In this document: in pieces, positions 25,267-63,683 of the stretch
Numbering within the stretch: position 1 is the first letter of the stretch
How the letters are laid out: every line of letters starts with the position of its first letter
Virus record (IMG/VR): IMGVR_UViG_3300037067_008637
Span: 1 to 64,000 of that record
Length of the DNA stretch: 64,000 bases
Strand: one strand, 5' to 3'
From: a virus
Taxonomy: Duplodnaviria; Caudoviricetes
The notes under the pieces: model-generated
Database searches by the model: none
What the model was told of the DNA's origin: nothing
The model's input: the letters and a program-made list of their open reading frames with translations, nothing else
Translations under genes and position numbers: made by a program

Positions 25267-26004
25267 TTAATCCAAAGAGCTAAGTTTGAAAAACTCCTCT
25301 TTGTACGTAGGTTCATCTACAAATATTCCGCGTAAAGCAGATGTCACCATAGATTGATTTGGATTTGCTTTAGCTCCTCTTGAGCGAAGACAATTATGCC
25401 GTCCCTTAACCACAACAATAACACCAAGAGGATCTAAAGCCTTCATTAAAATATTAGCCAAACCAGACGTATAGCTCTCTTGCAAAATAGGTTGTCTACC
25501 ATACAATTCAGCTACTCTGCTAAACTTAGAAATTCCAATAAACTTACTTTTCGGTATATATCCGGACCACACATCATATGTTACATTTTCAAAATGGTGG
25601 GGGCATAAACTGTATACAATAGCAGGATTTGTGGTGATGATTAGTTGATCCCCAATTTTAGAATCTTTACTATCCATCGCCGGAAAATCTTTGCCGAGTA
25701 TTTGCATACAAGCTTCTTCACTATTGATTCCCACGCAACGTTCAAGTACCCACATTTTTGCAACTCTTGCAGGAGTTTCTCGGAAGTTTTCATCATCAAT
25801 ATCTAATCCGAAACCATCTCTAAGATCCTCAAGAATCCCTTGAAATTTCTGTGCGATTCCTTCCATAGCTTTAACGTGTTGCGGTTGGACGCCTAAAAAA
25901 CCCACGGTGGGTCGGTCAAAGGTCCTGCCCTCCATAGGGTCAGGACCTTCTTCCAACGATTCTACCATAAACGGTGCGCCCGAGTGATTGAATATATCAG
26001 TCAT
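25267..26004 (-). CDS. folE: GTP cyclohydrolase I
   Basis: ETPARVAK, SLCPHH, GISKFSR, LQE, HNCLRSRG, TSALRGIF. Confidence 0.93.
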   Translation of the reverse strand: MTDIFNHSGAPFMVESLEEGPDPMEGRTFDRPTVGFLGVQPQHVKAMEGIAQKFQGILEDLRDGFGLDIDDENFRETPARVAKMWVLERCVGINSEEACMQILGKDFPAMDSKDSKIGDQLIITTNPAIVYSLCPHHFENVTYDVWSGYIPKSKFIGISKFSRVAELYGRQPILQESYTSGLANILMKALDPLGVIVVVKGRHNCLRSRGAKANPNQSMVTSALRGIFVDEPTYKEEFFKLSSLD

Positions 26005-29000
26005 GTCTATCTTCTCCTTCTGAATTTACTTTACAAGACATGTAGAGATCACTAAGCTTTTCATCCCCAAAATTCAAGGACAATCCTACTACATTCAAAT
26101 AGGATTCCAATATTCTCAAGGATTGTGGTCTATTGTCTTTATCCTCATCTTCATCAATTAACATTGGATTCTGTAAGATATCTGCAAGCATTGCATTCTT
26201 TTTAGCAACTGAATCGGAATGAACTGTTAGTAGATCTTTCAGATAGTCCTTTGCATTGTGTGCTAACCATGCCCACACTTCCATCTCACCAAGTCTGTGT
26301 CCCCCTCTATTGGATTTTCCACCCATAGGCTGAGACGTTTTCTTGTTGTATGGACCTATAGATCTTGCAGAGATTTTATCGCTCGCTCTATGTACAAGCT
26401 TGTCAAAATACATATATCCACATGCGATTGGCTTTCTAATTTCTAAGCCAGTTCCAACATCCGTTAACATATATTTATCTTGCGCACCAACGTAGTCCAT
26501 TGCTTGTTTCAATTTCATAGGTGAAGTGGATTGATAGCTAGGTTGTATTACGTATAACTCATCTATTGCTGTTTCTGTACCTTTTTCGTCTTGAATTCGT
26601 TTGAAATCCTCTAACACTTGAGCACTTGCCCACTTGTTTGGGGTTTCATCAATTATATTCAAGAAAGTCAACAGATCAGAAATTAATTCATCAATCTCTC
26701 CAGCAATCAATCTGGCTTTAAGCTTTTTCTTTAATTGATATACTGCTTCACCCATATGCAATTCACACAATTGGCCGACATTCATTCGAGACACGATACC
26801 TAAGGGATTGATAATGACATCAGGATGACGGCCATCTTCTAATAAAGGCATTTGATCATCCGGAATGACTTTAGCAATAACTCCTTTATTTCCATGTCTG
26901 TTTGCAATTTTGTCACCAATACCAATTGCTTCTTCATATACTCCTCTTATACGGAAAAGGATTCCTCCTACTTTCTCTCCTTTTACGTGATACTTACCAA
27001 TATGTTGATCATCACAGTTTAAGGAGGATAATCCATTTACCATAATAAACGTATCAAGTTCTTCCTTGGACATATACGGTTCCAAACTAGAAACGAGAAC
27101 ATCAAATCTCATGCTTTGTTCTGCAACAAGCGTGTCTATTTTTGCATCAAAGTCATCAATTCGTTTGTTCCAAGTATTGGGAAAAATCTCAACGGAAGCA
27201 ACTTTACAATCGATAGGAGAAACCTGCTCAATTGGTGCTTCGTTGATATTATCAAAACCGTTTTCCCAATCCAGTGTTTTAATTTTACCGTATACTTGTC
27301 CTTTCTTCAAAATTTGATTTGGTTTTGGAAGAGGAACATATCCATCTTTTTCAAGGGATAATAGAACTTGTCCGGATTCTACTTGAAAAGACAATTCTAC
27401 TGAATGAATTGACGTCATTTTCTTACTGACAGACTCTGAAATCATAATTCCATCTTCGTAGTTAAACCCTTTCCAAGGAATAACGGCAGTAAGGAAATTT
27501 CTTCCTAGGGACAATTCGCCATCTTTCAGGAATCTGGATGAACAAAGAATTTCACCTTTTTCGAATCTTTCTCCAGTATTAAATTTTCGTTCCACATAAT
27601 CTATTGAATTCAAATACAATGGACGATATCTAATATTGAAGACTTCAGCCTTCGGTTCATTCTCATCAGTTACATCATCATATGCAACAACCATAAAAAA
27701 TGGATCAACATATGTAACGATTCCATTATGTTTGGCAACATGCAAGAAATTGGTTCTTTCCAAATATGCGGATTCCAAACCTGAACGAACCGTAGCTTTT
27801 TCAGAGTCCACTAGCAAGATGGTTTGTTTAATTTGATTACTTGCCATTTGCAATCTTGTGGCGTCATCATGTTCCATAAACGGCACAAGATTGATAGGAA
27901 GAGAAGTAAGTACAGTTTCATCTACCACAGCGTTAAACATTCCGTTCTCTTTAATGTCTACAATCGGAACGAGATTTTGTATTACGCCGCAACCTTCTCT
28001 GTCGGGAGTATCCGCAGGACAGATTAATCCAAATTGACTTTCATCCATATTTCTCAAATGAGGAGGAACATTGTCTTTCTTAAATCCACCAGGCCCTACC
28101 AAACTGCATTGCATCAAGGCAGCAAGTTCGCCAACTGGATTAACTGGAAAGTTGTAATGAATGATATGAGCAACATCATTCTTCCCATTTTTTGGAGTGG
28201 ACGAATTGCAATTATCAATTAGAATGTTCTGAGGAATAGAAAACTTATCCTTGTGGGTTTTCTTGATTGCTATGAGCATGTCATACATCTTACGGACCAT
28301 TGGTGAAAGAATATACTCAGCTAGGCGTATCCTCTTTCTCCTTACATCCGTATCAGATTTAGGACCTTCCCCAATAGCATAAAGAAGTTCCAACAGAATT
28401 GAATTAGTGTGAAAGAACTGTCTTGTAAAATGATCTACTTCATATGCAGCCTTAATAGAGAAAAGAGTTCCTTCCCCTTTCCTATATTTTTCTGAAGGTT
28501 GATTCATGAAGAACTGACCCAAATATTCACAAGTCTGCTGGTAATTCCTTGCTTGATCCCAATGAAATTCAGCACCTTCCATTATACGAACAATGTATTC
28601 ATTATCCATATATGAAGGATGACTATCCAAGAACTCAGCAACTTCTTCCCGAGTGTGAACAGATGCTAACAATACATCAAATGGAACATCTTTATTAAAG
28701 ACTTGAACATTGATGTTCCCATCTCGTCTATTCAAATCAACACTCATAGAAATTGAATTTGTTCTCAGTTTTAGCATCGAAGTGGTTTTCGATACTTCTC
28801 TGTATATTATTGGAAGATCATACAATTGGAAGATGGGGACTTTTAGAAATCCCCCAATGTAAAAGAATTGATCGTATACCAATGTTGGAACTTGTATTGG
28901 ATACTCATGTTCTTTTCCATCAGGTGCAATCATTTTACAAACAATGATGCGAAATACACTCTTTTTCAAATCTTCTTTTTTCGTTGGTTTCTGTGAGGGT

Positions 29001-29143
29001 CTCCAAGAAGAACCTTGATACACCCATCCCTCAATCATTTGGACTGTTCCAAATATTTGATCAAGATGATATTGTATTGCATCAAGTGTCCATTCTTGCT
29101 TTCGTCTATTTAAGATATTGTCTCTTGTAAATCTAGGATCCAT
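25997..29143 (-). CDS. rpoB: Multisubunit RNA polymerase beta subunit (phage-encoded)
   Basis: CPADTPDREGCG, PFMEHDDATRLQMASNQ, GFNYEDG, GDKIANRHGNKGV, SRMNVGQ, GGHRLGEMEVWA. Confidence 0.95.
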   Translation of the reverse strand: MDPRFTRDNILNRRKQEWTLDAIQYHLDQIFGTVQMIEGWVYQGSSWRPSQKPTKKEDLKKSVFRIIVCKMIAPDGKEHEYPIQVPTLVYDQFFYIGGFLKVPIFQLYDLPIIYREVSKTTSMLKLRTNSISMSVDLNRRDGNINVQVFNKDVPFDVLLASVHTREEVAEFLDSHPSYMDNEYIVRIMEGAEFHWDQARNYQQTCEYLGQFFMNQPSEKYRKGEGTLFSIKAAYEVDHFTRQFFHTNSILLELLYAIGEGPKSDTDVRRKRIRLAEYILSPMVRKMYDMLIAIKKTHKDKFSIPQNILIDNCNSSTPKNGKNDVAHIIHYNFPVNPVGELAALMQCSLVGPGGFKKDNVPPHLRNMDESQFGLICPADTPDREGCGVIQNLVPIVDIKENGMFNAVVDETVLTSLPINLVPFMEHDDATRLQMASNQIKQTILLVDSEKATVRSGLESAYLERTNFLHVAKHNGIVTYVDPFFMVVAYDDVTDENEPKAEVFNIRYRPLYLNSIDYVERKFNTGERFEKGEILCSSRFLKDGELSLGRNFLTAVIPWKGFNYEDGIMISESVSKKMTSIHSVELSFQVESGQVLLSLEKDGYVPLPKPNQILKKGQVYGKIKTLDWENGFDNINEAPIEQVSPIDCKVASVEIFPNTWNKRIDDFDAKIDTLVAEQSMRFDVLVSSLEPYMSKEELDTFIMVNGLSSLNCDDQHIGKYHVKGEKVGGILFRIRGVYEEAIGIGDKIANRHGNKGVIAKVIPDDQMPLLEDGRHPDVIINPLGIVSRMNVGQLCELHMGEAVYQLKKKLKARLIAGEIDELISDLLTFLNIIDETPNKWASAQVLEDFKRIQDEKGTETAIDELYVIQPSYQSTSPMKLKQAMDYVGAQDKYMLTDVGTGLEIRKPIACGYMYFDKLVHRASDKISARSIGPYNKKTSQPMGGKSNRGGHRLGEMEVWAWLAHNAKDYLKDLLTVHSDSVAKKNAMLADILQNPMLIDEDEDKDNRPQSLRILESYLNVVGLSLNFGDEKLSDLYMSCKVNSEGEDRHD

Positions 29144-29157
29144 TGGTACTCCCTCAC

Positions 29158-31869
29158 TTAGTATCTGAACAGTGAAGTTAAAGCAGACGATTCATCTACT
29201 TCTTCCTCAATCAATCCAGTAATAAGCTTTTGTTTTAGATTGCTAAATGCACACCCAAGAAGCCAAGATGATCTAGCAGGTACTTGTAGAATGCTTACAT
29301 ATTCAGGTTCTACAGTATTTCGTGCAGGAAGAAGTCTCCACAATTTATTACCGTGCCACATCATTGATGCGGTGATGACTTCAAAATGAATATTTTTGAT
29401 GTCACCATATTGTCCGAATACTTTGTAGATTCTTCTTACCAAGTCACCAGGTGTAGTTATATCTTCAGGACTATGAAACATCTTTTTGGCAATAGTCATT
29501 CCCGAAATGATATCATCATTGTCTCCAGATTTTCCACCGGATGTAGATGCCGCACCTGAAATATGGAAGGTTCTTAATACTAATTGGGTTGCGCGTTCAC
29601 CAATAGCTTGCGTCGCAATGATACCGATTTGATCTGAGTGTAATATCTTGTAAAGATTTCCGTAACAAGTTTTACAAACCCTGTTATTTTTACAATATAT
29701 TGGACTTCTCAGTTTAACAATTTTGCCAACCATCTCACGATAATTGTTATGAGTTACAAGAATCTTTTGGCCATTCCCTCCAACGATAAACCGCCACATT
29801 AAGGATTTTGCTACATTTGCATCAGCTACAAACAAATCTAATGTATCGGTTGTACCACAGTCGTCTTCTTCTCCTAATTCCATATTGACTGTAGAATAGA
29901 TTAATTGTCTGGTTAGATATCCTGTATCTCCAGTAGACAATGCAGTGTCCAATAGTCCTTTTCTTGAACCCCAACAGCTATTGAAAAACTCAACGGGAGT
30001 TAATCCTGTTGTCAAACTTGATCTGATTAATGTTTCTCTTACATGATTGTCTGCATCCGCTACATATCCTCTAGACAATACCATCTGTCTAGCCTGATCC
30101 CATGTCCCTCTTGCACCGGATTCAATAAAGATAGCAAACGGAAGTTCTTTAAGCCGTCCAACAATTGCCGGATCGCTTTTAAGAGTTTCCATATCTTCCT
30201 CTACATTTCCAGTTAGTTCATCTGCATATCGAATCAATTGTTCATCATACAGATCAAATAAGGACAATGTAAATCCTTCGATAGTCACCATACTAAATCC
30301 TAACGACTTAATCTTATCGAAGGTATCCATAACTTGTTTTGGCGGATAATTCAAACATATATCGTTCATTATAGATCTGAGTTTATTCTTTGTAACAGTT
30401 TCGTTTATTACTGGATATTCTGTCGGTAAACACATATTAAATAAATATCTACCAAACGGAAGAACTGCTCCTTTATATACTCTTGTCTGCTCATCTTCTT
30501 GCTCTTTTGTTGCCGTGTAAATACCAAGAATGATATCTTGATTTGGCTTTGGTACAGCTTCTAAATCCGTAGGAGATAAAAGATTTGCCCATATTCCCAA
30601 ATTCTTTTTGGTATCTGCAATAGCTTCAGGTGTTATCGGAAAATACACAGCCATAGCATCCCCATCAAAGTCTGCATTATATGGAGAACAGATTAGAGGA
30701 TGTATTTGAATTGTATTTCCTAGATGCACTTTAACCTTGAACGCAAGTACGGATAGACGATGAAGAGTCGGTTGACGATTTAATACGCACACTTTGTCTG
30801 CACAAAATTCTTCAACTATATCAAAGAATTTCGGATCGCTATTTTCAATACTCTCATCAATAAGTTTGATCGCTTGATTATAACGTTTGCAAACACGTTT
30901 ATTGATGAAATGCGTGATTAGACATGGTTTAAGAATTTCTAAAACCATCCAATAGGGCAATCGGCATTCATCTAAATTGAGTGTTGGATCTGGAGAAATT
31001 ACTGCTCTTCCTGAAAAGTCAACTCGTTTTCCCAAAATATTGGAACGAATTAAACCCGTCTTTTTGCTCATACTTTCTAAGACGGAATCATACAGTTCTT
31101 GAACCAGCTTCTGTAAATATTTGAAATTGGTTTGATATACTGCATCATTGTCTCTTACAGGAAATGGCAGATTCTTCAGTTCTGTGGAAATCTTAATAAT
31201 CTTTTGATATCGTTTGTTGATATCATCAGATACATAATTGTCGCCGCGAAGTTTTCCACAAGGACGAAACTCTGGAGGAATGACTATGACATTCTGTATG
31301 GTTAATTGATCCCAGTGTTCATCTATGTAAGTCAACTCTGCTCTCGGCAGTATATTGGTATTCTCGTCACTTGCTTTTATCTTATCAATTTCTATCAAGT
31401 AACGAACATATGCGAGTACACCTTCTAGTCCTTCCAAATATTCAATATTCGGATCAGGATTATCAACATCAACCAACTTAGCGAGATTTCCATCTTCATC
31501 AAAGAAATACTTAGCTTTGAATGATAGCATCTCCTGGATGACTTTTCGTATCGTTGCTCTCTTGGATGCAACAAGATACAAAAACAACGGATTTAAAATA
31601 GGAAATGGCAGTTTGATTTTTCCAAACTGGCGCTTTCTCATTTCAGCCGTCGTGATTTTAACGTTGCATACAGGGCATACAGGCTGTTCGTATCTTGGTC
31701 CTTTATAAGGATTTTTTGTACAGGCACAATGATAAGATTTTAGAGGCCCAAACAACTGTTGACTAAATAACCCCTCCTTCGCGAACTTTCGATTTTCAAA
31801 AGGTTTTGCAAATGTTATTTCCGGTAAATCATCACTTACGTTATCGACATTAACAAGATCAATTTTCAC
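29158..31869 (-). CDS. rpoC: Multisubunit RNA polymerase beta' subunit (phage-encoded)
   Basis: N-terminal Zn site (CAC..CPVC), LGKRVDFSGRAVI, NRQPTLHR, catalytic NADFDGD, TGYLTRQL, TQLVLRTFH. Confidence 0.95.
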   Translation of the reverse strand: MKIDLVNVDNVSDDLPEITFAKPFENRKFAKEGLFSQQLFGPLKSYHCACTKNPYKGPRYEQPVCPVCNVKITTAEMRKRQFGKIKLPFPILNPLFLYLVASKRATIRKVIQEMLSFKAKYFFDEDGNLAKLVDVDNPDPNIEYLEGLEGVLAYVRYLIEIDKIKASDENTNILPRAELTYIDEHWDQLTIQNVIVIPPEFRPCGKLRGDNYVSDDINKRYQKIIKISTELKNLPFPVRDNDAVYQTNFKYLQKLVQELYDSVLESMSKKTGLIRSNILGKRVDFSGRAVISPDPTLNLDECRLPYWMVLEILKPCLITHFINKRVCKRYNQAIKLIDESIENSDPKFFDIVEEFCADKVCVLNRQPTLHRLSVLAFKVKVHLGNTIQIHPLICSPYNADFDGDAMAVYFPITPEAIADTKKNLGIWANLLSPTDLEAVPKPNQDIILGIYTATKEQEDEQTRVYKGAVLPFGRYLFNMCLPTEYPVINETVTKNKLRSIMNDICLNYPPKQVMDTFDKIKSLGFSMVTIEGFTLSLFDLYDEQLIRYADELTGNVEEDMETLKSDPAIVGRLKELPFAIFIESGARGTWDQARQMVLSRGYVADADNHVRETLIRSSLTTGLTPVEFFNSCWGSRKGLLDTALSTGDTGYLTRQLIYSTVNMELGEEDDCGTTDTLDLFVADANVAKSLMWRFIVGGNGQKILVTHNNYREMVGKIVKLRSPIYCKNNRVCKTCYGNLYKILHSDQIGIIATQAIGERATQLVLRTFHISGAASTSGGKSGDNDDIISGMTIAKKMFHSPEDITTPGDLVRRIYKVFGQYGDIKNIHFEVITASMMWHGNKLWRLLPARNTVEPEYVSILQVPARSSWLLGCAFSNLKQKLITGLIEEEVDESSALTSLFRY

Positions 31870-33588: not shown

Positions 33589-33820
33589 TCATGATGCCCT
33601 CCAACAATTTCAATTCAAAATGATTAAGTCCTTGAAGATCATCAATACTGTATTCCGGAAATTTCATTTCTAATTGGACCAAATGATGTCTAGTCCATTC
33701 ATTCATATCGTTTTCATATTGGTTTCTGATCAGTGCATCATCCCTCTCATTCACTTTCTTTCGTATGAAAAATATTGATCCAATGATCAGAACCAAAGCA
33801 ATAACAACAACCAGACTCAT
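33563..33820 (-). CDS. Small membrane-anchored protein
   Basis: N-terminal TM helix; ATGA overlap with the queC stop. Confidence 0.5.
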   Translation of the reverse strand: MSLVVVIALVLIIGSIFFIRKKVNERDDALIRNQYENDMNEWTRHHLVQLEMKFPEYSIDDLQGLNHFELKLLEGIMNENTEEKI

Positions 33821-36813
33821 TTCCCAATCCTTTTTCTCAAGATTTCTTTATTCTTCTCTGGAATTTCAAGTCGGTTTATGATATTGAGAATGTCTAGAGT
33901 TTTAACATCCAAAGAAGGAGGTTCATACGCTACATAATTACTATCATCTACAACATAATATGTCCTTCCATCTTCCAATCCAGCCATTTTACAGGACCAA
34001 TAACTCAGCAAACCACTACCGCATGCAGGCTTTCCATCTTTGGAGCAATTAGCAGGAACAGATACACAACCACATACTTTACCATCGAGATTCTTTAATT
34101 CCTGCTGAATCATCATAGGTCGATCACATGATACTAAGAATTTTTCAAGAGGCTTTAGAAATCCAAGCTGATTGAGAAGATGATATTGTTCTGTCTTTAG
34201 AATGTTACATAAACCATATAGGGGTTTGATGTGTAATCCAGCAATACTAAACTTAAAGAACTTTATTGCTGCATCTACAAACCGTTCGCAATTGTCCGGA
34301 TATGAATTGTGGGTTAACAATTTATTAACAAAGAAATTATTATTTGGTTCACAATAATAATTTATCATTTCCTGTTCACCATTAATAATCTCAATTCTCT
34401 CCAAATTCCATCCGTTTTGAAGGGAATATAAAAAATTAGTCACTCTAGATACAATCAGATTGGGATCATCTGTCTCAAGAATTGCCAAGTGATCCCACCC
34501 CATTTTTTTATATAATTGATGTCTGTTTTCAATTTCTTCTAAGGTGTGAAAATATCCAATTCCTCCATAGTATTCAACAATCTTTTTTTGTTCAATATTT
34601 ATAAAATCCGGATTCATATGTTTCCCGCTACTAGTTATCCAGATTTGTCCATCTCCTACAAATCTAAGAGGAAGAGAATGAGATTCAAATAGTAAAATCA
34701 ATTCTTTCTCTTTTTTATTGGGGCTTTCACATCCACAAATTGATGGATTTATTTTTCCTTCCGCAATCATTTTTAATGTGGCTTGTCTACATTTTTCTCT
34801 TCCTTCTGGAGTTTGATTCCAATGAATACCTCCGTTAGCAATCAGTCTTTCCTTATAAACCTGTTTCATTTTTTCGGAAAGAATTTGTTTTACATTTTCT
34901 CCTTCTTCTGAACTCCAAAAAATAGATAAACCATTTAGAATTCGTCTTCTATATTCTTCGTCCTTCCAACATTTTTTAGATGAGATTTTTCTGTTTTCAG
35001 TATCTCCAGTTTGATGAGTTTTTCCACACCAACACGGAATTGTATTACTACGAATATGTCCAAACATTGGATTTTTATCACCAAGAAACGCTTTCCTTAT
35101 TTTTTCTTTAATTTCAGGAAGCATTTTCTTTCCAGTTCTCCACGAGGACAGTTTTTGTCTGGTTTCGGCAGACACAGAATGTCCCATTCTACATTTAGAT
35201 CTTTTTTCAAAATCATATCCAGGAAACGCATTTCCTCTTTTAATGTTATCTTTCAGTTTACACTCTTTAATAGAATAGCACACATCACCAACAAATAATG
35301 CGTTCGCCTCCACCCAATTCTTTCCTTTTATAAAAAATGGATGAGTACCTGAAACAAAAAGGATTTTTTCACTTTGTATGCATCCAGAATTATATGTGAA
35401 AGTCAATTTGTAAGTGTCTTGGTGATGATTATTAAACTTCTCCTTTATAATGCTTTTTTCCAATAATCCCTTGTCGATATTGAAAGACATTATTTCATCC
35501 CCAACATTTAAATCGTTCGGAAGGACTTCTTTTCCATCATATCTTAAAATCCTGTTGTTAATATGATTTACAATACATCCAGATTCTGTTAATTGAAGAA
35601 ACCCCCCGGTAAGGTAAACGTCGTCGTATTGATTTGTCATTATTAGAGATTCTGCTAAAGCACCCATATGTACAAGCATTAAATGATTACGGAAAGTAGT
35701 CCACGCGGCAGTCGTCTTCAATCCTTCTTCCGTTCCGGTTATGATCTTTGCCTTAGGATCTGTCAGCATTCCAAAATCCAGTTTGGACATTGCGTCGCTA
35801 ATATCAAATTCTCTTAACTCTATTCCAAGAGCCTTAGTAACGTGCCCAATAGCCGCTCTTTCACAATCCTGTCCTCTGTGTCCATATTTAAAGTGAACAG
35901 CAATCGGATTCATTTCTGCTGCCTTCAATGTTGCTAGTGTTGTAGAACTATCCAATCCTCCGGAAGCTGCAACAAGGACACATTCTCTCTTCGGTTTTGT
36001 TTTATCTTTCTTGTACACATCATACGTCGACGTAATGTATCTTGGTTCAAAGCTACTACCAGACACCATTCCACTATCCAAGTCAATACTAGTAATAGAA
36101 TATTCCGGTACTCTATGAGCATAATAATCTTCCCAGAGAGCCATTGTATTCTTTTCTATCTTTTGTCCTTTAAGTAAAGATATGGTTTCCCAAATGGATT
36201 CTTCTGTAGATGCTGCAAAGAATCCCCAACCTCTCAAATACCCGCAGTACAAAGGTGAATGGGTACAAACTAAGTACATGCAATTCTTCTGAGTATCTAC
36301 TAAAACAAATGCGAAGCCACCAGAAAGATAGTTCATAGTATCATTCATGTTTCGTCCGAACATAAGATAAGCGTGGATAATTGCTTCGCTATCAATGTCC
36401 GTTTGATATTCATATTCAAAACCAGATTCTTTTAATTCTTTCTGAATAATGGATGATACTGCACCATTGTGTACTAAATACAACCCATGCTCCCTGTTAC
36501 ATATTGGTTGGACATTTCTCTCTACGTTACTTACACCGCATTCGGTTTCGGGAGCGGCTCTTGCATTGGATAGAATAACATCTCCTTTTTGAAAAACATC
36601 CATAGGATAAGACGGATGCGGCAAATTATGCAATATTGTGGTACATTCAGTTACATCACTTGTTTTGTAGCACACTCCGGGCTGGTGCTGCCCTCTAATA
36701 AGGACAGCACCAAACCCATCGGTACCACGTTTCAATGATTGAAGCCATGCTGATTTGATCACATGTTTAGAAATCGATGCTTCTCTCATGTAAAATGCGG
36801 TAATTCCACACAT
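33817..36813 (-). CDS. queC: Class II glutamine amidotransferase-QueC fusion (Gat-QueC), intein-containing
   Basis: MCGI N-terminus, RGTDG, VHNG, DIDSE (Ntn GATase); SGGLDS PP-loop, YGHRGQ, FRNHLM and YPDN (QueC). Confidence 0.88.
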   Translation of the reverse strand: MCGITAFYMREASISKHVIKSAWLQSLKRGTDGFGAVLIRGQHQPGVCYKTSDVTECTTILHNLPHPSYPMDVFQKGDVILSNARAAPETECGVSNVERNVQPICNREHGLYLVHNGAVSSIIQKELKESGFEYEYQTDIDSEAIIHAYLMFGRNMNDTMNYLSGGFAFVLVDTQKNCMYLVCTHSPLYCGYLRGWGFFAASTEESIWETISLLKGQKIEKNTMALWEDYYAHRVPEYSITSIDLDSGMVSGSSFEPRYITSTYDVYKKDKTKPKRECVLVAASGGLDSSTTLATLKAAEMNPIAVHFKYGHRGQDCERAAIGHVTKALGIELREFDISDAMSKLDFGMLTDPKAKIITGTEEGLKTTAAWTTFRNHLMLVHMGALAESLIMTNQYDDVYLTGGFLQLTESGCIVNHINNRILRYDGKEVLPNDLNVGDEIMSFNIDKGLLEKSIIKEKFNNHHQDTYKLTFTYNSGCIQSEKILFVSGTHPFFIKGKNWVEANALFVGDVCYSIKECKLKDNIKRGNAFPGYDFEKRSKCRMGHSVSAETRQKLSSWRTGKKMLPEIKEKIRKAFLGDKNPMFGHIRSNTIPCWCGKTHQTGDTENRKISSKKCWKDEEYRRRILNGLSIFWSSEEGENVKQILSEKMKQVYKERLIANGGIHWNQTPEGREKCRQATLKMIAEGKINPSICGCESPNKKEKELILLFESHSLPLRFVGDGQIWITSSGKHMNPDFINIEQKKIVEYYGGIGYFHTLEEIENRHQLYKKMGWDHLAILETDDPNLIVSRVTNFLYSLQNGWNLERIEIINGEQEMINYYCEPNNNFFVNKLLTHNSYPDNCERFVDAAIKFFKFSIAGLHIKPLYGLCNILKTEQYHLLNQLGFLKPLEKFLVSCDRPMMIQQELKNLDGKVCGCVSVPANCSKDGKPACGSGLLSYWSCKMAGLEDGRTYYVVDDSNYVAYEPPSLDVKTLDILNIINRLEIPEKNKEILRKRIGK
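34306..35577 (-). mobile_element. Intein (424 aa) with NUMOD3-like repeats and a Vsr/DUF559-like endonuclease
   Basis: Splice junctions ESG|CIVNH...NNFFVNKLLTHN|SYPD; block B SGTHPF; HSVSAETRQKLS/NPMFG repeats; PDFINIEQKKIVEYYG..YFH. Confidence 0.88.
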
Positions 36814-40911: not shown

Positions 40912-42124
40912 ACAAGAGAAGCAGGAAAACCTCCTCCTTTAGGGGGAGGATGAACTGCTCTGAACTAGAAAATTGAGAACAAGTGAATAGGATAAAACTA
41001 TATATAAGTTTATTCTTTTAACGATTGGAGAGATTATATGAAATTAATGAAGAGTTATACTGCTAGAATTGAAGGCAATGCCTGTAAATCTAGCAATCTG
41101 CTCTTCATTCTTTCCAAATTAAAAGAAATGTCCCAATACGTTTTCGAAGGCGGACCAGATTATTGGTTCGACTTCATGGCCATGTATCATGATTGTCGTA
41201 AACGTTATCCAGAATTAAACTCGAAAATACTGCAGAATTTTCTGCAACTTTATCGTCCTATTAAAGGACGAAAATTGCCCAAATCTGCAATTAAACCGAT
41301 TATTGTTCTAGATCAAAATTTCAATTTGAAATTCAATGAATGCTCTAAATATTCGAACTGGTGGTTACGATTCGGACGCCGAAATTATCCCTTGAGAGGA
41401 AAGAGAATCCTCTCTCGTATCAAGGACATATCAGGCGTTACAGAATGCCGTATCTTTGTTCGAAACAATAAAGCATATTGCAAATTGACATATGCTGAAG
41501 AGGCTCCAGAAATAACATCAACTGATAATCCAGTTGGAATCGATCTCAACACCAAGCGAATTGTTTCCTCTTCAAATAAAGTATACCATATAAAACGATG
41601 GTTTCATCGTAAGATGGAGAATAAGAAGAATCGTGGAAAGAACAATATTGATCAATTCACGAAACATACCATTCACCAGATCACGAATCAGATTATCGCG
41701 GATCTCGTCCGAACAGAATCAAAGGTTTTGATCCTGGAGGACCTTAAGGATCTTCGAAAGTCTTCATCGAGAAAGAATGGAACTTCAAAAGGAAAAGAAC
41801 TCAATTATCGAATAAATAATTGTTTTCCAACCGCGATGTTCCGACAAATTCTTTCTTATAAATGTTTAGAAAACGGAATCAAATTGGAATTCGTAGATCC
41901 TGCATACACCTCGAAAGCTTGCTCGCGATGCGGCTCGCAAGAGACGCTTCGAGAGACTCAATCGAGGTTTGAATGCACGTCTTGTGGATTTCAATTGGAC
42001 GCCGATCTAAACGCTTCTAGAAACATTCTATTCCGGTATACCGGAGAGAATGGCTCGCCAGTCGATCCGAGCCGGTTTTCCCAAGGGAAAGCCAAGCTGG
42101 TCCCTTTAGGGGCCAGTAGTTGAC
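40912..42124 (+). mobile_element. Non-autonomous IS200/IS605-family (IS1341-type) element
   Basis: Left hairpin CCTCCTCC-TTTA-GGGGGAGG (40930-40949), right hairpin CTGGTCCC-TTTA-GGGGCCAG then TAGTTGAC; tnpB only; boundaries approximate. Confidence 0.75.
41038..42123 (+). CDS. tnpB: TnpB RNA-guided nuclease
   Basis: RuvC GIDLN / ILEDL / DADLNASRNI and Zn ribbon CSRCG..CTSCG; the only long plus-strand gene in the region. Confidence 0.9.
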   Translation: MKLMKSYTARIEGNACKSSNLLFILSKLKEMSQYVFEGGPDYWFDFMAMYHDCRKRYPELNSKILQNFLQLYRPIKGRKLPKSAIKPIIVLDQNFNLKFNECSKYSNWWLRFGRRNYPLRGKRILSRIKDISGVTECRIFVRNNKAYCKLTYAEEAPEITSTDNPVGIDLNTKRIVSSSNKVYHIKRWFHRKMENKKNRGKNNIDQFTKHTIHQITNQIIADLVRTESKVLILEDLKDLRKSSSRKNGTSKGKELNYRINNCFPTAMFRQILSYKCLENGIKLEFVDPAYTSKACSRCGSQETLRETQSRFECTSCGFQLDADLNASRNILFRYTGENGSPVDPSRFSQGKAKLVPLGASS

Positions 42125-50404: not shown

Positions 50405-51139
50405 TTAATACCCAACTATATTCAGCAACCACACTGGTTTTTGATCATTGTCATATACTCTCTTTATATCATATCTTCCATTGAAAACTTTGTCAACATT
50501 TGTTAGAATCATTGATTCCAAAGGAAGCCATTCTTCCGCACCTATTTTTCGCCAAGAAATATTTCTAATTTCAGATTGAGTTGCTGTTAATTGAATTGGA
50601 AGTTTTTCTCTAGAAATATGTTCGGCCGCAGATGCTTCTGCTTTAAGAATTTCAAGTACGGAAAGATATTCAGATGCAATATTGCAAAAATCTGAAATTT
50701 CCCCTTGGTTTAAATCACAAGTAGCAAACGCGGTATCGGTTTCCCACACAGAAATCCTACCAATGATTACACCAAGATACTCCAATGATTTACAAAACTT
50801 CTTCAATAGAAAATAACACATGTTTTCTGCAGTCGGATTATCGGACACTGCATAAGCTCTATTACCTTTTAACCAACCCAACTTTACAACATCCAGATCC
50901 GATTGATTGTATATTAGAGCATGATCCCAATTTTCATCAATCCATGTTCCAAGAGTTTTCTTAATTACACTGAAATCAACTAGACGTCCTACTGAATCTA
51001 ATTTCGGTCCAAATGCAGTTACTTCAACCACATAGGAGTGGCCATGAATACTACTGCATCTTCCTTCATGCCCAACCAAACGATGGGCACACTCAAATTT
51101 AAGTTGTTTTGTACAAGATATTGTCATATTAGACATCAT
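50405..51139 (-). CDS. queD: 6-carboxy-5,6,7,8-tetrahydropterin synthase with a C-terminal extension
   Basis: FECAHRL..C..IHGHSY, VDFS, WDH, NPTAEN, VWET. Confidence 0.9.
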   Translation of the reverse strand: MMSNMTISCTKQLKFECAHRLVGHEGRCSSIHGHSYVVEVTAFGPKLDSVGRLVDFSVIKKTLGTWIDENWDHALIYNQSDLDVVKLGWLKGNRAYAVSDNPTAENMCYFLLKKFCKSLEYLGVIIGRISVWETDTAFATCDLNQGEISDFCNIASEYLSVLEILKAEASAAEHISREKLPIQLTATQSEIRNISWRKIGAEEWLPLESMILTNVDKVFNGRYDIKRVYDNDQKPVWLLNIVGY

Positions 51140-52579: not shown

Positions 52580-52960
52580 TTAGGTATCCATGCAACCAAA
52601 AACAATGTGAGGAGTTGAAGTAACAGAAGGAAGTAAATCGGTTAGGTGTTTTTTCCAACTGGATATTCCAGAAGGTATAACATCCGATTTATCTACAATA
52701 CAATCATCTTGATTCATTACTCCAACACCAATAACAACAAAGCTTTCTCCACGAATCGCATATATACCTCTTGGAAGATCTGGAAGCATGAATCTTCCGT
52801 ATTTGTCTTTTCTGTTTTCCCATTCTCCCTTAGAAGAAATTCCTAATGCATTCCATATATCTGCCTGAGCATCATCCCATTTGTATATAGGAAGTTTCCA
52901 TCCATATATGACAAAGGATGTAGAACTGCTATTGCTAACAAAACCTTGTCTGAATTTCAT
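52580..52960 (-). CDS. SNSS-motif family protein (isolated copy)
   Basis: Begins MKFRQGFVSNSSSTSFVIYGW. Confidence 0.75.
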   Translation of the reverse strand: MKFRQGFVSNSSSTSFVIYGWKLPIYKWDDAQADIWNALGISSKGEWENRKDKYGRFMLPDLPRGIYAIRGESFVVIGVGVMNQDDCIVDKSDVIPSGISSWKKHLTDLLPSVTSTPHIVFGCMDT

Positions 52961-58843: not shown

Positions 58844-60157
58844 GTGAACTACTGGTCCCTAAAGGAACCAGCTTCCTGCGTTGCCGCAATACTATCCGAA
58901 AAATCGGAATGATTCTCCAAATAGGCCTGTCCCAGGCAAAGTATGTTTTTGGCCGCATTGACATCTCTATCTTCAACATAACCGCAACTGCAACTCATAG
59001 TTCGATCAGAAAGCGGCATAGTGTGCAACTTTCCGCAATTGTTACACATTTTGCTGGTATTATATGGATTGACTTCTATGATTCGGTTGCTCTTGTATTT
59101 TAAGAACGATATCAATTGACCCAAACACGAATTTCTCAATTCTCTATTTAATCCGGTTATTTCACTTTCTGACATTTTCTTCAATTGAAGATTTTCAATA
59201 ACAATTGTATCAAATTTTTGAGAAAGGTTATAAGAAACCTTATGCAAAAAATCCGATTGTTTTCGGCTCTTTGCATCATACAATTTATTGATCGTCTTAG
59301 AAAGAAAACGCCATTTTCTTGAGTATTTTTTACATTTCTTGTCTCTCCTTGATTTCAGTTGATTGATTTGTTTATCAAAATATTTTGCATGATTTTTGTT
59401 CTTAATGATTTCACCATCAGATGTTGCAACAATATTAGTGATACCGAGATCAATGCCAATAATTGAATTACTTGTTTCTACGGATTTCTTTTCACCCTCG
59501 GACGTGATACAAATATACCATTTATCGTCTTTCGTTGTGATGTATAATTGTTTGATAGTTCCTTGTATTTCTCTGTGCTTAGAAATCTTAATTGATCCAT
59601 ATTTCGGAACTTTTACGTGATTATCCAAAATCTTGAAATGAAGTGATTGTGGATAGCAAATTCCAAAGAATTCTCTGCAGGATCTGAATCTTGGATAACC
59701 TTCTGGTTTTCCATCTTTACGAAGATCCAATTCCTCTTTGGAATTCCTAAGGAGATCATGAAATTTGTCGAAAGCTTTTTGCAATCTTAATGGAACTTGT
59801 TGCAACACCTGACTATGAATCTCCAAAAGAGATGGATCATCTTGTTTTAATGAAACCAATTCCTGTTGCTGATCATATCTAGTAATTTCATAATCACCTG
59901 TTAGATTTCTTTGTTCTAAGAAATAATTGTACAATCGATTAAGACGATTGGCGTGAGTCCAAAGCTTCCTTATCTGATCCTGTGTAGGATAAGCTCTGAA
60001 CTTATAAGTAATCATTCGTCTTTCGAAATCCTTTTTGTTTTCAATATATTCCTTTAGAATCATTATATTGTAAGTTTGTTCTGCTTATTTCAAATGGGTT
60101 TATATATGAAAATTATTCGTCACCTACTGCCTAAAGGCAGAGGATTTCTTCTTGAGG
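58844..60157 (-). mobile_element. Non-autonomous IS200/IS605-family element
   Basis: Left hairpin CCTCTGCC-TTTA-GGCAGTAGG (60123-60143), right hairpin CTGGTTCC-TTTA-GGGACCAG then TAGTTCAC; tnpB only; boundaries approximate. Confidence 0.75.
58849..60063 (-). CDS. tnpB: TnpB RNA-guided nuclease
   Basis: YKFRAYPT HTH, GIDLGI, IVIENL, TSKMCNNCG..CSCG..DRDVNAAKNI. Confidence 0.93.
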   Translation of the reverse strand: MILKEYIENKKDFERRMITYKFRAYPTQDQIRKLWTHANRLNRLYNYFLEQRNLTGDYEITRYDQQQELVSLKQDDPSLLEIHSQVLQQVPLRLQKAFDKFHDLLRNSKEELDLRKDGKPEGYPRFRSCREFFGICYPQSLHFKILDNHVKVPKYGSIKISKHREIQGTIKQLYITTKDDKWYICITSEGEKKSVETSNSIIGIDLGITNIVATSDGEIIKNKNHAKYFDKQINQLKSRRDKKCKKYSRKWRFLSKTINKLYDAKSRKQSDFLHKVSYNLSQKFDTIVIENLQLKKMSESEITGLNRELRNSCLGQLISFLKYKSNRIIEVNPYNTSKMCNNCGKLHTMPLSDRTMSCSCGYVEDRDVNAAKNILCLGQAYLENHSDFSDSIAATQEAGSFRDQ

Positions 60158-60541
60158 TTAATTATCTGAGATTGATCCGAACATATATTTAGGAGCACCA
60201 TATTCGGTAGTGGGAACAGGAAGAAGTTGGTTGACGCGTCTTTTCCAATCAGGAAATGTCTCGGCTAATCTATCGGGAACTGTGTCGTATCCGTCACTTC
60301 CCACGCATCCAACTCCTACAATCAAAGTTTCATACCCAACAGCAGTTGTGATTCCTTTAGGAAGCTTATAATTGACTAATTCTACATTGCTCCACCATTT
60401 ATCACACCATTCATCCCTGCCAATACCCAAAAATTCCCAAAATGCTGCATCATCCTCATAATCCCTGACATTCAATTCCCATCCACAAATTACAAAAGAA
60501 GTGGAACTAGAATTTGATACGAAACCACAACGAATTTTCAT
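60158..60541 (-). CDS. SNSS-motif family protein
   Basis: MKIRCGFVSNSSSTSFVICGW. Confidence 0.75.
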   Translation of the reverse strand: MKIRCGFVSNSSSTSFVICGWELNVRDYEDDAAFWEFLGIGRDEWCDKWWSNVELVNYKLPKGITTAVGYETLIVGVGCVGSDGYDTVPDRLAETFPDWKRRVNQLLPVPTTEYGAPKYMFGSISDN

Positions 60542-60554
60542 TTCTTTGTCTCCT

Positions 60555-60926
60555 TTAGCATGGATATGTTCCAGTGAACAAATGAGGAGGTCCTACCAAT
60601 CCAAAGTGTTCTCCCCAAGGCATAAGTTGATTAATCCAGTCAGAAATATCTATATCTGATTCATCCAATCCGCCTTCGTCCTCACCAGTGATTGTTCTTC
60701 CAAAGAACATTCCGATTTCATTAATATGTCTAACTGATCCAAAACTCTTTCCTTCCTTGGAAGAGATCATATCAATAGAATCGCATTCTTCACATCCTAG
60801 AGTTACACAATCGTCGCAAATAAACTTCTGACAAACTTCTTTCGGATCAGTTTCCTTCAATTTCCATCCAAGGAAAACAAAAGAACTACTAGAAGAATTT
60901 GATACAAATCCCGTTCTAATTTTCAT
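60555..60926 (-). CDS. SNSS-motif family protein
   Basis: MKIRTGFVSNSSSSSFVFLGW (start reassigned to 60926). Confidence 0.75.
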   Translation of the reverse strand: MKIRTGFVSNSSSSSFVFLGWKLKETDPKEVCQKFICDDCVTLGCEECDSIDMISSKEGKSFGSVRHINEIGMFFGRTITGEDEGGLDESDIDISDWINQLMPWGEHFGLVGPPHLFTGTYPC

Positions 60927-61317
60927 CTCCACATCTCCTACTATAACCATTCAACCGAATTGCAATATCCTCTAATGAGGTGAAGCATTCTCCGCCATTT
61001 CTCTTCACCATTTCCCCAACTTGTTTCAAACTCTTAATTTGAAAAGGGGAAAAGCCATCTTCTAAATAGCAAAAAAGACATTTGTTTGGACGCTTATTAC
61101 TATCGTCTATCACTTCAGCAATACTATAGACACCCGTCATTTCAGATGTGATAACATACAAACAAAAATCACATGATGCTCTCTGCCTAAGCTCTTCAAT
61201 CATAAATTCTGGAGTCCAATCATCCACAACAGGATTGAAATAATCAATCTCTAACATAGGGATGAGTTTTTCTCTCCAAGTGCTATTATTGCATGTTCCG
61301 CCCAAAAATACTTTCAT
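60916..61317 (-). CDS. Nucleoside 2-deoxyribosyltransferase-like domain protein
   Basis: KVFLGGTCNNSTWR..YFNPVVDDW..E..CD..LYVIT..GVYSIAE. Confidence 0.75.
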   Translation of the reverse strand: MKVFLGGTCNNSTWREKLIPMLEIDYFNPVVDDWTPEFMIEELRQRASCDFCLYVITSEMTGVYSIAEVIDDSNKRPNKCLFCYLEDGFSPFQIKSLKQVGEMVKRNGGECFTSLEDIAIRLNGYSRRCGDEN

Positions 61318-61326
61318 GAATCCTCC

Positions 61327-61707
61327 TTAACCCAAAGCATCTAATATATACACTCTTGGTTCTTTATTTTCAATCTCCTCATCAATTCCTAATTTCTCTG
61401 TAGGAGTAAGCCAACTTTGCCAATCCCTCAAAGGTTCTCCATCATCAGAAGAATCAGATACACCTATATAGTTTCCGATATAGAAACAATCATCCTCGTT
61501 ACAAAATCCTAAGTTCTTTTCATAAAGAACATCACAAATTGCTCCAGTAATATTATTATCGGACATACCAGGATCAAGCGTTTCTCCACATAACTTGGTG
61601 AATAATGCCCGCAAGGATTCTGTATCTTTTGGCATTGGATACTTCCATCCACAAACCAAGAAGGATGATGTGGAACTATTACTTACAAAACCTGTTCGAA
61701 TTTTCAT
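61327..61707 (-). CDS. SNSS-motif family protein
   Basis: MKIRTGFVSNSSTSSFLVCGW (start reassigned to 61707). Confidence 0.75.
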   Translation of the reverse strand: MKIRTGFVSNSSTSSFLVCGWKYPMPKDTESLRALFTKLCGETLDPGMSDNNITGAICDVLYEKNLGFCNEDDCFYIGNYIGVSDSSDDGEPLRDWQSWLTPTEKLGIDEEIENKEPRVYILDALG

Positions 61708-61708
61708 A

Positions 61709-62086
61709 TCAGTCGTGCCACGCATCTTGATGAAAAGACGGTTTAACATCTTCTGATAGTCCCAATAACTTCCTAATTTTTTCCGCTTCTTCAGCCATAT
61801 GTGAAGGATCCGTATTACCGGAAATTTTCACACCAAGGTAAACACCATCACAATAAGGAGGTTTCTCAGTCATATCACTGTAACCCAAATCATCTTCAAA
61901 CCAACCCTCAAGTTCTTCTCCATCACAATCATCCGCAATATTTGCGTTAGGATCAATCACTTTGATAAAATTGATTTTTCCCATTCTCTCTGCAATGGCA
62001 TTGATTTCCTCTTCCTCGAAATACCAGCCATAGATACAAAAAGACGATGTAGAACTATTGCTTACAAACCCTTGTCTGATTTTCAT
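61709..62086 (-). CDS. SNSS-motif family protein
   Basis: MKIRQGFVSNSSTSSFCIYGW. Confidence 0.75.
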   Translation of the reverse strand: MKIRQGFVSNSSTSSFCIYGWYFEEEEINAIAERMGKINFIKVIDPNANIADDCDGEELEGWFEDDLGYSDMTEKPPYCDGVYLGVKISGNTDPSHMAEEAEKIRKLLGLSEDVKPSFHQDAWHD

Positions 62087-62098
62087 TTGCCTTCTCCT

Positions 62099-62509
62099 TT
62101 AGAATGAATCCCCATGTACAATGATTTCGCAACCGTAAACTTCAACCTGTTCTGTTCCTACTGACGCAATTGCTGATTCAATTTCATTACCATTATCTGT
62201 GGCTGCATTACAACGCAAAAGAATCTTACCATTCGCAAAAGCATTTTTTGCACTGTCTAATTGCTCATCATATTCTCGTTCAAATGATTTTCTTTTCTGT
62301 TCATCCATCTCATCACTCCAATAATCACTGAACAACCAATCATAAAACTCTTTATATGTTTTGAATGTTGTTTCATCCGAATCACGAAGATCCACAACAG
62401 GAATTTCCAGTGTTACCGAAATGACAGCATCACCCATATGAAGAGGATCAACGGCAACAACGAAACTGGTGGATGAACTGTTGCTTACGAATCCGATACG
62501 AAGTTTCAT
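62099..62509 (-). CDS. SNSS-motif family protein
   Basis: MKLRIGFVSNSSSTSFVV. Confidence 0.75.
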   Translation of the reverse strand: MKLRIGFVSNSSSTSFVVAVDPLHMGDAVISVTLEIPVVDLRDSDETTFKTYKEFYDWLFSDYWSDEMDEQKRKSFEREYDEQLDSAKNAFANGKILLRCNAATDNGNEIESAIASVGTEQVEVYGCEIIVHGDSF

Positions 62510-62517
62510 AATTCCTC

Positions 62518-62820
62518 CTAAGAACCCACAAGGTTAGTTATATTTTCATCTGGAACCCCAATTTCATGCAAAAATTCCACCAGGGGAAAATTGTCTATAC
62601 AAGTGAAACATTGGAAGAAATCTTCTCCCTCTTTGATATCCCATTTGACATTACATTTGGGTTTTCCCAACCATGGATGTGTTCTCTCCCAACCGGGAAT
62701 CAACTTATAGAACTTGTCATGGTTTCTCACCTTATTCATCTGTGCTTCTGACAATCCTGTTTTCAAGAGAGTGAAACTACAGGATGAACTATTACTGACA
62801 AAACCAATTCTCACTTTCAT
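62518..62820 (-). CDS. SNSS-motif family protein
   Basis: MKVRIGFVSNSSSCSFTL. Confidence 0.75.
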   Translation of the reverse strand: MKVRIGFVSNSSSCSFTLLKTGLSEAQMNKVRNHDKFYKLIPGWERTHPWLGKPKCNVKWDIKEGEDFFQCFTCIDNFPLVEFLHEIGVPDENITNLVGS

Positions 62821-62832
62821 AACTGTTTCCTT

Positions 62833-63225
62833 TCACCTCAAAGATTCCCATTCTTTCCATTTCCAATTATTTCGTTTTCCTCCATCTCTCAATTCATAAT
62901 CAAATATTTTCCCCAACATATCACCTTGTTCGTCTCCGAAAATCCACGCACAACTCATTCCCGGAAGAATTGTATAAATCCTTTTGTTCTTCTGAAAACG
63001 GTTCTCTGCATCAATAACCATTATTTTGTAAGCATCCCCCAAAGATTTTTCATCATATGTGGATGCTCCATGATTGATATCTCCATACTTGTCAATATAA
63101 CTTATCAATCTCTCTCTACCAACATCCCGTACAAAATCAACAAGCGTTCTCGAAATCTTTGCGTTGTTTTGTATCATAAAGGACGTTGATGAACTATTGC
63201 TCACGAATCCAATACGAATTTTCAT
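62833..63225 (-). CDS. SNSS-motif family protein
   Basis: MKIRIGFVSNSSSTSFMI. Confidence 0.75.
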   Translation of the reverse strand: MKIRIGFVSNSSSTSFMIQNNAKISRTLVDFVRDVGRERLISYIDKYGDINHGASTYDEKSLGDAYKIMVIDAENRFQKNKRIYTILPGMSCAWIFGDEQGDMLGKIFDYELRDGGKRNNWKWKEWESLR

Positions 63226-63683
63226 GGCACATTCCCCACCTGTGGTTCATCATGATACACCACATATTTGATGTCACATGATTTTCCTTCTATTCTTGCT
63301 TTCCATCTCCTGTAATCACTGACTAGAAGATCAATACTTTCCGGCCGATATAAAATATCAGGATCAATATTATTCTCCAAATAGACAGCCATCTCTAAAG
63401 CCACGATTTTTTTCTCATCTTTGTCCCAGATTCCACTATGAGCTGTGACAAATGAAATAGAATGATGACTTGGATATTTTCCTACATGTTCCGTATGAAA
63501 TCCACTAATAATTCCTTTTGCTTCTCTTGCAGAAATAAGATTTCCGATTTCTTCCAGAGAGATTTCAATATCAATCACCTGTCCTGAGTTTCTTTCATCA
63601 TTGACTGTAATTATGAAAAAATCATCCCTTTTATTTGACGAGACTCTACTAAGCCTCACACCAACTTCTGTCACGTGTCCCAT
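63222..63683 (-). CDS. Hypothetical protein
   Basis: 153 aa, AAGGAG RBS; first gene before the SNSS array. Confidence 0.6.
   Translation of the reverse strand: MGHVTEVGVRLSRVSSNKRDDFFIITVNDERNSGQVIDIEISLEEIGNLISAREAKGIISGFHTEHVGKYPSHHSISFVTAHSGIWDKDEKKIVALEMAVYLENNIDPDILYRPESIDLLVSDYRRWKARIEGKSCDIKYVVYHDEPQVGNVP

Follow-up and report, generated by a model that had tools for sequence, protein, structure and literature searches.

A Conserved N-Terminal Tag on Diverse Small Proteins of Phages and Avs2-Like Operons, a Candidate Recognition Site for a Radical-SAM/SPASM Enzyme

Introduction

The nearest known kind of system to the one described here is that of the leader-guided radical S-adenosylmethionine (radical-SAM) maturases of ribosomal peptides. 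In the pairs SkfB-SkfA, SuiB-SuiA and CteB-CteA a conserved N-terminal leader occurs beside a radical-SAM enzyme that carries an auxiliary Fe-S domain at its C-terminus, and one such maturase can serve several precursors. A comparable layout is considered here for a stretch of 64,000 nucleotides (the window) from a tailed virus (Duplodnaviria; Caudoviricetes), positions 1 to 64,000 of the IMG/VR record IMGVR_UViG_3300037067_008637, in which eight small proteins, most of them encoded in a single array, begin with the same 16-residue motif, hereafter the tag. On balance, and with some reserve, we favor a reading in which the tag is the recognition site of one radical-SAM enzyme with a SPASM/twitch-type C-terminal Fe-S domain, and probably also the site at which this enzyme modifies its substrates.

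The tag system shares the general plan of these maturases, and SkfB is itself a solved relative of the phage enzyme, yet the differences are considerable. Maturases of ribosomally synthesized and post-translationally modified peptides (RiPPs) act on short core peptides, whereas the putative clients of the tag system are folded proteins of 100–190 aa belonging to many unrelated families. A RiPP precursor consists of a leader and a released core peptide; in the tag system there is no shared core-like segment and the tag sits directly on the fold. Furthermore, no leader protease or exporter is found nearby, the clients of one enzyme number up to 14 and some lie tens of kb away, the conserved site is within the leader itself, and the tag occurs also in immune operons of a kind resembling nucleotide-binding leucine-rich-repeat (NLR) receptors.

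Two other groups of proteins invite comparison. The enzymes anSME and BtrN are radical-SAM dehydrogenases of the SPASM/twitch type, and the residue on which anSME acts is a Ser or Cys near the N-terminal region of a full-length protein. Among solved structures, BtrN gives the best sequence match to the phage enzyme (2.4e-4); unlike the substrates of anSME, the tag has no sulfatase (C/S)xPxR motif, and no sulfatase is involved. The internal proteins of phage T4 are diverse small proteins, some with anti-defence activity, that carry an N-terminal capsid-targeting sequence; they likewise present a short constant leader on diverse small phage proteins. The tag differs from that sequence in having no (L/I)xE cleavage site, in its link to a radical-SAM enzyme and in its occurrence in bacterial immune operons.

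On the bacterial side, the closest described case is the three-gene KpAvs2 operon, in which the radical-SAM protein Avap1 is needed against some phages only, while the small accessory protein Avap2, labelled PF19902 (DUF6375) by HHpred, binds KpAvs2 constitutively; the roles of both were left open (Bechon et al., 2024; PMC11564622). In the literature searched, no paper contained the motif string or the pairing of tag and radical-SAM enzyme, and none joined radical SAM, SPASM, phage, leader and Avs; papers on Slopekvirus give only the annotation "peptide-modifying radical SAM."

The Tag and Its Placement

A six-frame motif scan of the window detected eight minus-strand open reading frames (ORFs) opening with MK[IFLV]RxGFVSNSS[ST]xSF, seven of them between 60158 and 63225 and one at 52580–52960. 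The motif is placed at the first Met in all eight, which bears out an earlier note, made from the letters of the window, that had described seven such genes in 3 kb and a distant eighth with the motif at the exact N-terminus. The scan revealed no further copy in the window, the sole extra "SNSS" belonging to an unrelated stretch at 49656. Two of the ORFs have longer mechanical starts, at 60950 and 61749; in these the upstream genes end 5 and 0 nt before the tag ATG, and an AGGAG-like Shine-Dalgarno sequence precedes every tag ATG, so that the Met of the tag is the true start.

Twelve of the first 16 residues (M1, K2, R4, G6, F7, V8, S9, N10, S11, S12, S15 and F16) are invariant among the eight copies. 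The codons are far less constant: both AGY and TCN are used for Ser at positions 9, 11, 12, 13 and 15, both CGN and AGA are used for Arg, and over the first 48 nt the pairwise nucleotide identity averages 66%. Since the Ser and Arg codon families switch between copies, selection acts on the tag peptide, as the earlier note had maintained; judged by its codons, the tag is neither a DNA or RNA element nor the result of a recent duplication.

The tag is not confined to this phage. A word-indexed search returned 713 tagged proteins of similar length, in which the motif is nearly always at residue 1 (117 of 120 matches), and in an exhaustive search of 1.84 billion cluster representatives, 16,771 match the tag profile at E ≤ 0.001. 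Among 128 of these representative matches the tag is at residue 1 in 114. Seven of the other 14 hold a second, internal tag, with a Met start (once Val), behind a complete tagged protein, apparently because two neighboring genes were merged in annotation. Another six carry short extensions ahead of the tag, apparently from wrongly placed starts, and one lacks the motif by the pattern used. With regard to fused or longer tagged forms, the word search gave one marginal match and the exhaustive search yielded apparent double gene calls only.

A Constant Leader on Variable Bodies

No Pfam family matches any of the eight window proteins. The profile phrog_7397 aligns to all of them (E 4.3e-05 to 0.04), only over the first 18–38 residues of its 170 positions, which correspond to the tag alone. 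The sequences following the tag (the bodies) were compared in a set of 275 tagged proteins pooled from database matches, related loci and the window, from which the tag was removed before clustering. By BLAST, the stripped bodies fall into 62 clusters, and no profile-profile similarity is detected among the seven largest of these (hhalign probability ≤2.3%). The co-oriented array of the window alone carries, on seven tag copies in 3 kb, at least four body classes: the body of gene 61709 (genes are named here by their first coordinate) belongs to the largest class and those of 62518, 62833 and 62099 to three separate ones. The division of the eight copies into five related "GW" proteins and three others, proposed in the earlier note, holds in outline, although the five show only faint mutual similarity and the three fall into three separate families. 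The body of gene 62833 represents a small family (TLVDFV... motif) that is likewise tagged in other phages.

AlphaFold models were obtained for two proteins of different class. In the model of 61709 (75-row alignment; mean predicted local distance difference test, pLDDT, 77.5), residues 1–12 are coil, the first ten with a pLDDT of 48, and the first strand spans residues 13–24; in that of 62518 (11-row alignment; mean pLDDT 78.7), residues 1–11 form a coil of pLDDT below 50, ahead of a fold that begins at residue 14. The topologies of the two models differ, and in both the S-x-S-F-hydrophobic segment of the tag opens the first strand of predicted folded domains of 85–120 residues, placed directly after the tag. 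Foldseek found no match in the Protein Data Bank (PDB) at E ≤ 0.001 for the 61709 model, a blank that does not establish a new fold. Nor are new folds established by the best Z values of the wide VIA-align search, 3.6 for 61709 and 5.5 for 62518, the latter to a generic ferredoxin/ACT-like arrangement, while the ESM Atlas returned unnamed viral clusters alone, with scores ≤0.80.

These comparisons and models support the view that the tag is a constant leader on variable bodies, which is what the earlier note had put forward; its question whether the motif is buried core or free leader is answered by both models in favor of a free leader of low confidence. The residues under the strongest conservation are therefore predicted to lie outside the fold, as is characteristic of a linear motif that some other molecule recognizes.

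Linkage to a Radical-SAM/SPASM Enzyme

The survey of the motif and its gene neighborhoods that the earlier note had recommended points to one candidate for this molecule, a single family of radical-SAM/SPASM enzymes. In 39 viral loci ascertained by the tag, the tagged genes form co-oriented arrays of 1–14, and 29 of these loci contain, within 10 kb and always on the same strand, a member of this family. A hidden Markov model (HMM) of the family was built from the CxxxCxxC proteins neighboring tag arrays; in these related loci, as distinct from the phage under study, PF04055 (Radical_SAM) is present in 13 of 13 members and PF13186 (SPASM) in seven of the 13. Nine records without a nearby enzyme were searched whole: the enzyme is encoded elsewhere in each of the three records with a completeness of 85% or more, and the six without it are fragments no more than 52% complete. 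Every tag-bearing virus record of this survey that is at least 85% complete encodes the enzyme, including 6/6 of those at least 90% complete.

The association is equally evident from the side of the enzyme. Among 80 loci ascertained by the enzyme, 76 have tags no farther than 10 kb away, with a median of 4 and a maximum of 11 per locus, and the tags, mostly directly downstream, are co-oriented with the enzyme in 333 of 333 cases. The enzyme is encoded in 172 GenBank phage records. The complete genome of the Klebsiella phage KP27 (NC_020080.1), a cultured T4-like Slopekvirus, shows that the two partners can be dispersed: the enzyme KP27_176 (locus L146, 4923–6092) lies 19–23 kb from the tagged KP27_124 and KP27_130, and a dispersed layout was likewise found in three near-complete metagenomic records.

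By sequence, the only solved relatives of the enzyme are BtrN, with a similarity confined to the cluster-binding segment (query residues 49–91), and SkfB (2.7e-3), and the N-terminal extension of the enzyme comprises only about 45 residues. This kinship suggests a twitch/SPASM-type enzyme abstracting a hydrogen from a bound substrate.

Tagged Proteins in Bacterial Avs2-Like Operons

The tag and its enzyme are also found together in bacteria. A scan of prokaryotic genomes revealed six intact loci and a degraded one, in metagenome-assembled genomes (MAGs) of Terriglobales, Acidobacteriota, Bryobacterales and Verrucomicrobiota. The order of genes in the MAG operons is an Avs2-like STAND NTPase (SMEK_N + NACHT; PADLOC Avs2 1.3e-23), a 124–141-aa protein, one tagged protein of 135–137 aa and the radical-SAM/SPASM enzyme, and adjacent genes mostly overlap or abut. 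The same four-gene unit is present on the pAt plasmid of Agrobacterium tumefaciens Ach5, with a tagged protein of 131 aa. Across 120 listed bacterial homologues the tag hardly varies; the Ach5 variant, MKLKMDFVSNSSSTSF (L147, 5610–6005), in which K4 and D6 replace R4 and G6, suggests that FVSNSSSxSF is the indispensable core. An untagged protein of 121–141 aa, without Pfam match, always occurs between the Avs2-like STAND and the tagged gene of the bacterial operons (Table 1).

As in the KpAvs2 operon, a radical-SAM protein and a small protein follow an Avs2 STAND in these operons, and the two systems are likened here by layout alone, with three genes in the published operon against four in the tag operons. 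A search with PF19902 by HMMER gave no match at E ≤ 1 in the eight window proteins and none in five genomes that encode a bacterial tagged protein; precomputed Pfam domains on the 120 listed bacterial homologues include no family at all, PF19902 among them. The window copies differ further from the KpAvs2 accessory genes in that their neighbors are phage genes (TnpB, a nucleoside 2-deoxyribosyltransferase-like gene and a ligase), and no STAND or radical-SAM gene adjoins them in the window.

Proposed Mechanism and Alternative Readings

In the mechanism that we propose, the tag would be a portable leader, short, flexible and exposed, set before unrelated small folded proteins and read by one dedicated radical-SAM/SPASM enzyme. 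Residues 2–8 (K-I-R-x-G-F-V) would dock on the enzyme as an extended strand, thereby bringing the invariant S9-N10-S11-S12 to the radical-SAM active site, where they would be chemically altered; by analogy with the radical-SAM dehydrogenases, an oxidation of Ser would suit a Ser-rich invariant site. A single enzyme could in this way mark a whole repertoire of clients, eight in this phage and 1–14 per locus elsewhere, and the bodies, mostly acidic and diverging fast, may act as host-directed effectors. The binding of enzyme and tag, the covalent modification and the roles of the bodies are parts of this proposal that we infer.

The enzyme itself would have to be encoded in the phage outside the window, which is probable because the window is part of a longer contig and KP27 exemplifies a dispersed layout. 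A complex prediction for an enzyme from one of the related loci and the 61709 protein reached a score of 0.55 against 0.00 for the best control, graded as "weak support"; in the calibration, 58 of 80 solved complexes attain that mark, as do 2 of 110 mismatched pairs, and scores ≤0.60 were given by only seven of the 80 solved complexes, plus both of the passing mismatches. At least 41% of the contacts are common to the runs, and the pLDDT of the partner is at least 51.

Several observations weigh against the proposal. The window contains no CxxxCxxC ORF of at least 150 aa and no match to the enzyme HMM at E ≤ 1, and the gene at the head of the array, a 153-aa ORF, occupies the place that the radical-SAM gene has in other phages, yet it is not a radical-SAM protein. 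The idea of a phage modification enzyme, which the earlier note had raised, agrees with one enzyme family linked to the tag elsewhere, but that enzyme is not in the window. To this are added the six tag-bearing records without enzyme, all of them fragments, and a complex prediction that is weak only. Moreover, the chemistry of the enzyme is not readable from its sequence, and co-occurrence would fit a relation of adaptor or regulator equally well.

An adaptor relation is in fact the alternative to which the same co-occurrence data directly apply. The tag would dock on the radical-SAM enzyme and stay unmodified, while the variable body recruits or regulates the enzyme at different targets; for bacteria, this would make the tagged protein a bridge between the enzyme and the Avs2 sensor. 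Many unrelated bodies per enzyme would suit a set of adaptors. We nevertheless hold this reading to be unlikely, given that S9, N10, S11, S12 and S15 are invariant from phages to Acidobacteriota, Verrucomicrobiota and Agrobacterium, a degree of constraint more typical of a reacting site, and that SPASM/twitch enzymes (SuiB, CteB, SkfB, anSME) usually act on the peptide that they bind. The behavior of the KpAvs2 accessory proteins, with Avap2 bound constitutively and Avap1 needed against some phages only, would also favor an adaptor, as far as systems likened by layout alone can be compared (PMC11564622). The earlier note had listed docking on one partner among its options for the leader, together with a recognition or modification site and substrates of a phage enzyme, and all of these fit the comparative data; its options of secretion and autocleavage are without support.

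Its further option, packaging, belongs to a reading in which the tag routes proteins to the capsid, from which they would be injected, or to a phage nucleus, and the link to the radical-SAM enzyme is indirect. Among the T4 internal proteins, diverse small proteins do share a constant N-terminal leader, and this phage has multisubunit RNA polymerase genes typical of some jumbo phages; however, the identical tag stands on single proteins beside an Avs2-like STAND in chromosomal and plasmid operons of bacteria, where there is neither capsid nor phage nucleus. In addition, no Glu occurs in residues 1–20 of the eight copies, which leaves no (L/I)xE site for a prohead protease, and the tag tracks the enzyme rather than the type of capsid, being found in the T4-like KP27 and in large phages encoding RNA polymerase alike, and a targeting signal is in our judgment very unlikely. 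We consider it highly improbable that the tag is an N-terminal degron or a protease-recognition sequence timing the lifetime of early phage proteins: an exposed, flexible and strictly N-terminal position would be appropriate for such a signal, but the near-obligate, co-oriented radical-SAM linkage would be left unexplained, and no protease recurs in the neighborhoods of the loci inspected. Scarcely credible, finally, is an ordinary family of eight diverged paralogues with a single fold, to which the motif would contribute a normal strand-loop of structural or catalytic role, a case close to the one that the earlier note had set against its own proposal. The faint likeness of the five "GW" copies and the first strand that the residues after the tag (SF-hydrophobic) form in both models speak for it; against it stand the invariant first 11–12 residues outside the fold, the two different topologies, the unrelated body profiles, the absence of a Pfam match and the restriction of the phrog_7397 match to the N-terminal segment. 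A glycyl-radical enzyme (RVxG[FWY] with a partner of the PFL-activase type) was considered separately and rejected: the R-x-G-F of the tag is one residue shorter and N-terminal instead of C-terminal, and the partner has a SPASM-type domain.

Returning to the recognition of the tag by a radical-SAM/SPASM enzyme, its broadest form, in which one enzyme places a novel covalent modification on unrelated folded proteins through a universal 16-residue tag, serving both the effector sets of phages and the accessories of Avs2-type, NLR-like sensors, is put forward as a tentative proposal.

Genes of the Array and Their Surroundings

The genes of the array and the related features are listed in Table 1.

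TABLE 1. Tagged genes of the window, untagged genes in or next to the array, and the middle gene of the bacterial operons (window positions unless a locus is named).
Feature	Position	Strand	Basis or remark
Untagged 153-aa ORF ahead of the array, no family assigned	63222..63683	-	stop overlaps start of first tagged gene by 4 nt
Tagged protein, 130 aa, net charge +3, first gene of the array	62833..63225	-	body-cluster 6 HMM, 7.5e-46
Tagged protein, 100 aa, body family "LSxEQ...NH...DNF"	62518..62820	-	motif and body clustering
Tagged protein, 136 aa, acidic, net charge -14	62099..62509	-	weak kinship to another tagged-body cluster (cluster 5 HMM, 5.4e-07)
Tagged protein, 125 aa, acidic, net charge -15, "GW/IYG" class	61709..62086	-	largest body family (YIGxxW...DDET block)
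Tagged protein, 126 aa, acidic, net charge -11, "GW" class	61327..61707	-	body a BLAST singleton
Untagged Nuc_deoxyri_tr2-like gene (nucleoside 2-deoxyribosyltransferase-like), inside the array	60916..61317	-	PF15891, 5.9e-10
Tagged protein, 123 aa from tag Met, acidic, net charge -10, six Cys, "GW" class	60555..60926	-	cluster 2 HMM, 4.9e-21
Tagged protein, 127 aa, "GW" class, last gene of the array	60158..60541	-	27% body identity to the 52580 copy
Dispersed eighth tagged protein, 126 aa, paralogue of the 60158 copy	52580..52960	-	between helicase-like and topoisomerase II-like genes
Untagged middle protein of bacterial operons	L044 7579-8001; L147 5255-5620; equivalents in L045, L047, L048, L049, L052		

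The nucleoside 2-deoxyribosyltransferase-like gene within the array was considered as a component of the system and rejected, as it does not recur beside tag arrays: BLAST finds none in 61 tag loci, and PF15891 is present in one of ten other tag-bearing records, there far from the array. The gene is probably a passenger. At its 3′ end the array is directly abutted by a TnpB/IS605 OrfB-like gene with a Cas12f-like TNB domain (58849–60063, minus strand), and a second gene of this kind lies at 41038–42123 on the plus strand.

The window covers 64 kb of a 92-kb contig that derives from a large phage, and it carries genes for a terminase, a baseplate protein, SbcCD, topoisomerase II-like proteins, QueC-like and PTPS proteins and the two TnpB. 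Two large genes at 25997–31869 (minus strand) match the beta/beta′ families of phage multisubunit RNA polymerases, as in jumbo phages, and the genome is therefore well above the size of the contig. A 998-aa amidotransferase/QueC-like fusion (33817–36813, minus strand) and a PTPS/QueD-like gene (50405–51139, minus strand) suggest a 7-deazaguanine-type modification of the DNA in this phage. A giant ORF of 2460 aa (7739–15121, minus strand) adjoins the terminase gene.

The DNA of the array was found in one groundwater run, possibly its source, and, in identical form, in a landfill run of another study (contigs of two DNA runs), and no RNA run is listed for it. Groundwater contigs of other, more abundant organisms match the window at 61624–62425 solely over the 30–40 nt coding for the tag, and therefore other phages in the sample bear the tag too. 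No relatives of the contig of the 153-aa ORF were found among the viral and metagenome contigs searched. Among GenBank phages, megablast of the array gave no match, and tblastn of one tagged protein was blank, probably owing to the low-complexity filter, since KP27 does carry tags.

Concluding Remarks

If the tag is indeed a site of radical-SAM modification, leader-guided chemistry would extend from small peptides to sets of folded proteins, and a function would be assigned to thousands of phage genes now annotated as "hypothetical," as the number of cluster representatives matching the tag profile indicates. An explanation would then be at hand as well for the Avap-type accessory genes that accompany some Avs2 immune operons. 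In addition, the tag could be a portable handle for enzyme-directed modification of proteins. The question can be tested directly, since cultured models exist in the Klebsiella phage KP27 and its relatives and in the pAt plasmid of Agrobacterium tumefaciens Ach5. Should the proposal prove true, the tag and its enzyme would constitute a new kind of post-translational protein modification system, present on both sides of the conflict between phages and their hosts.

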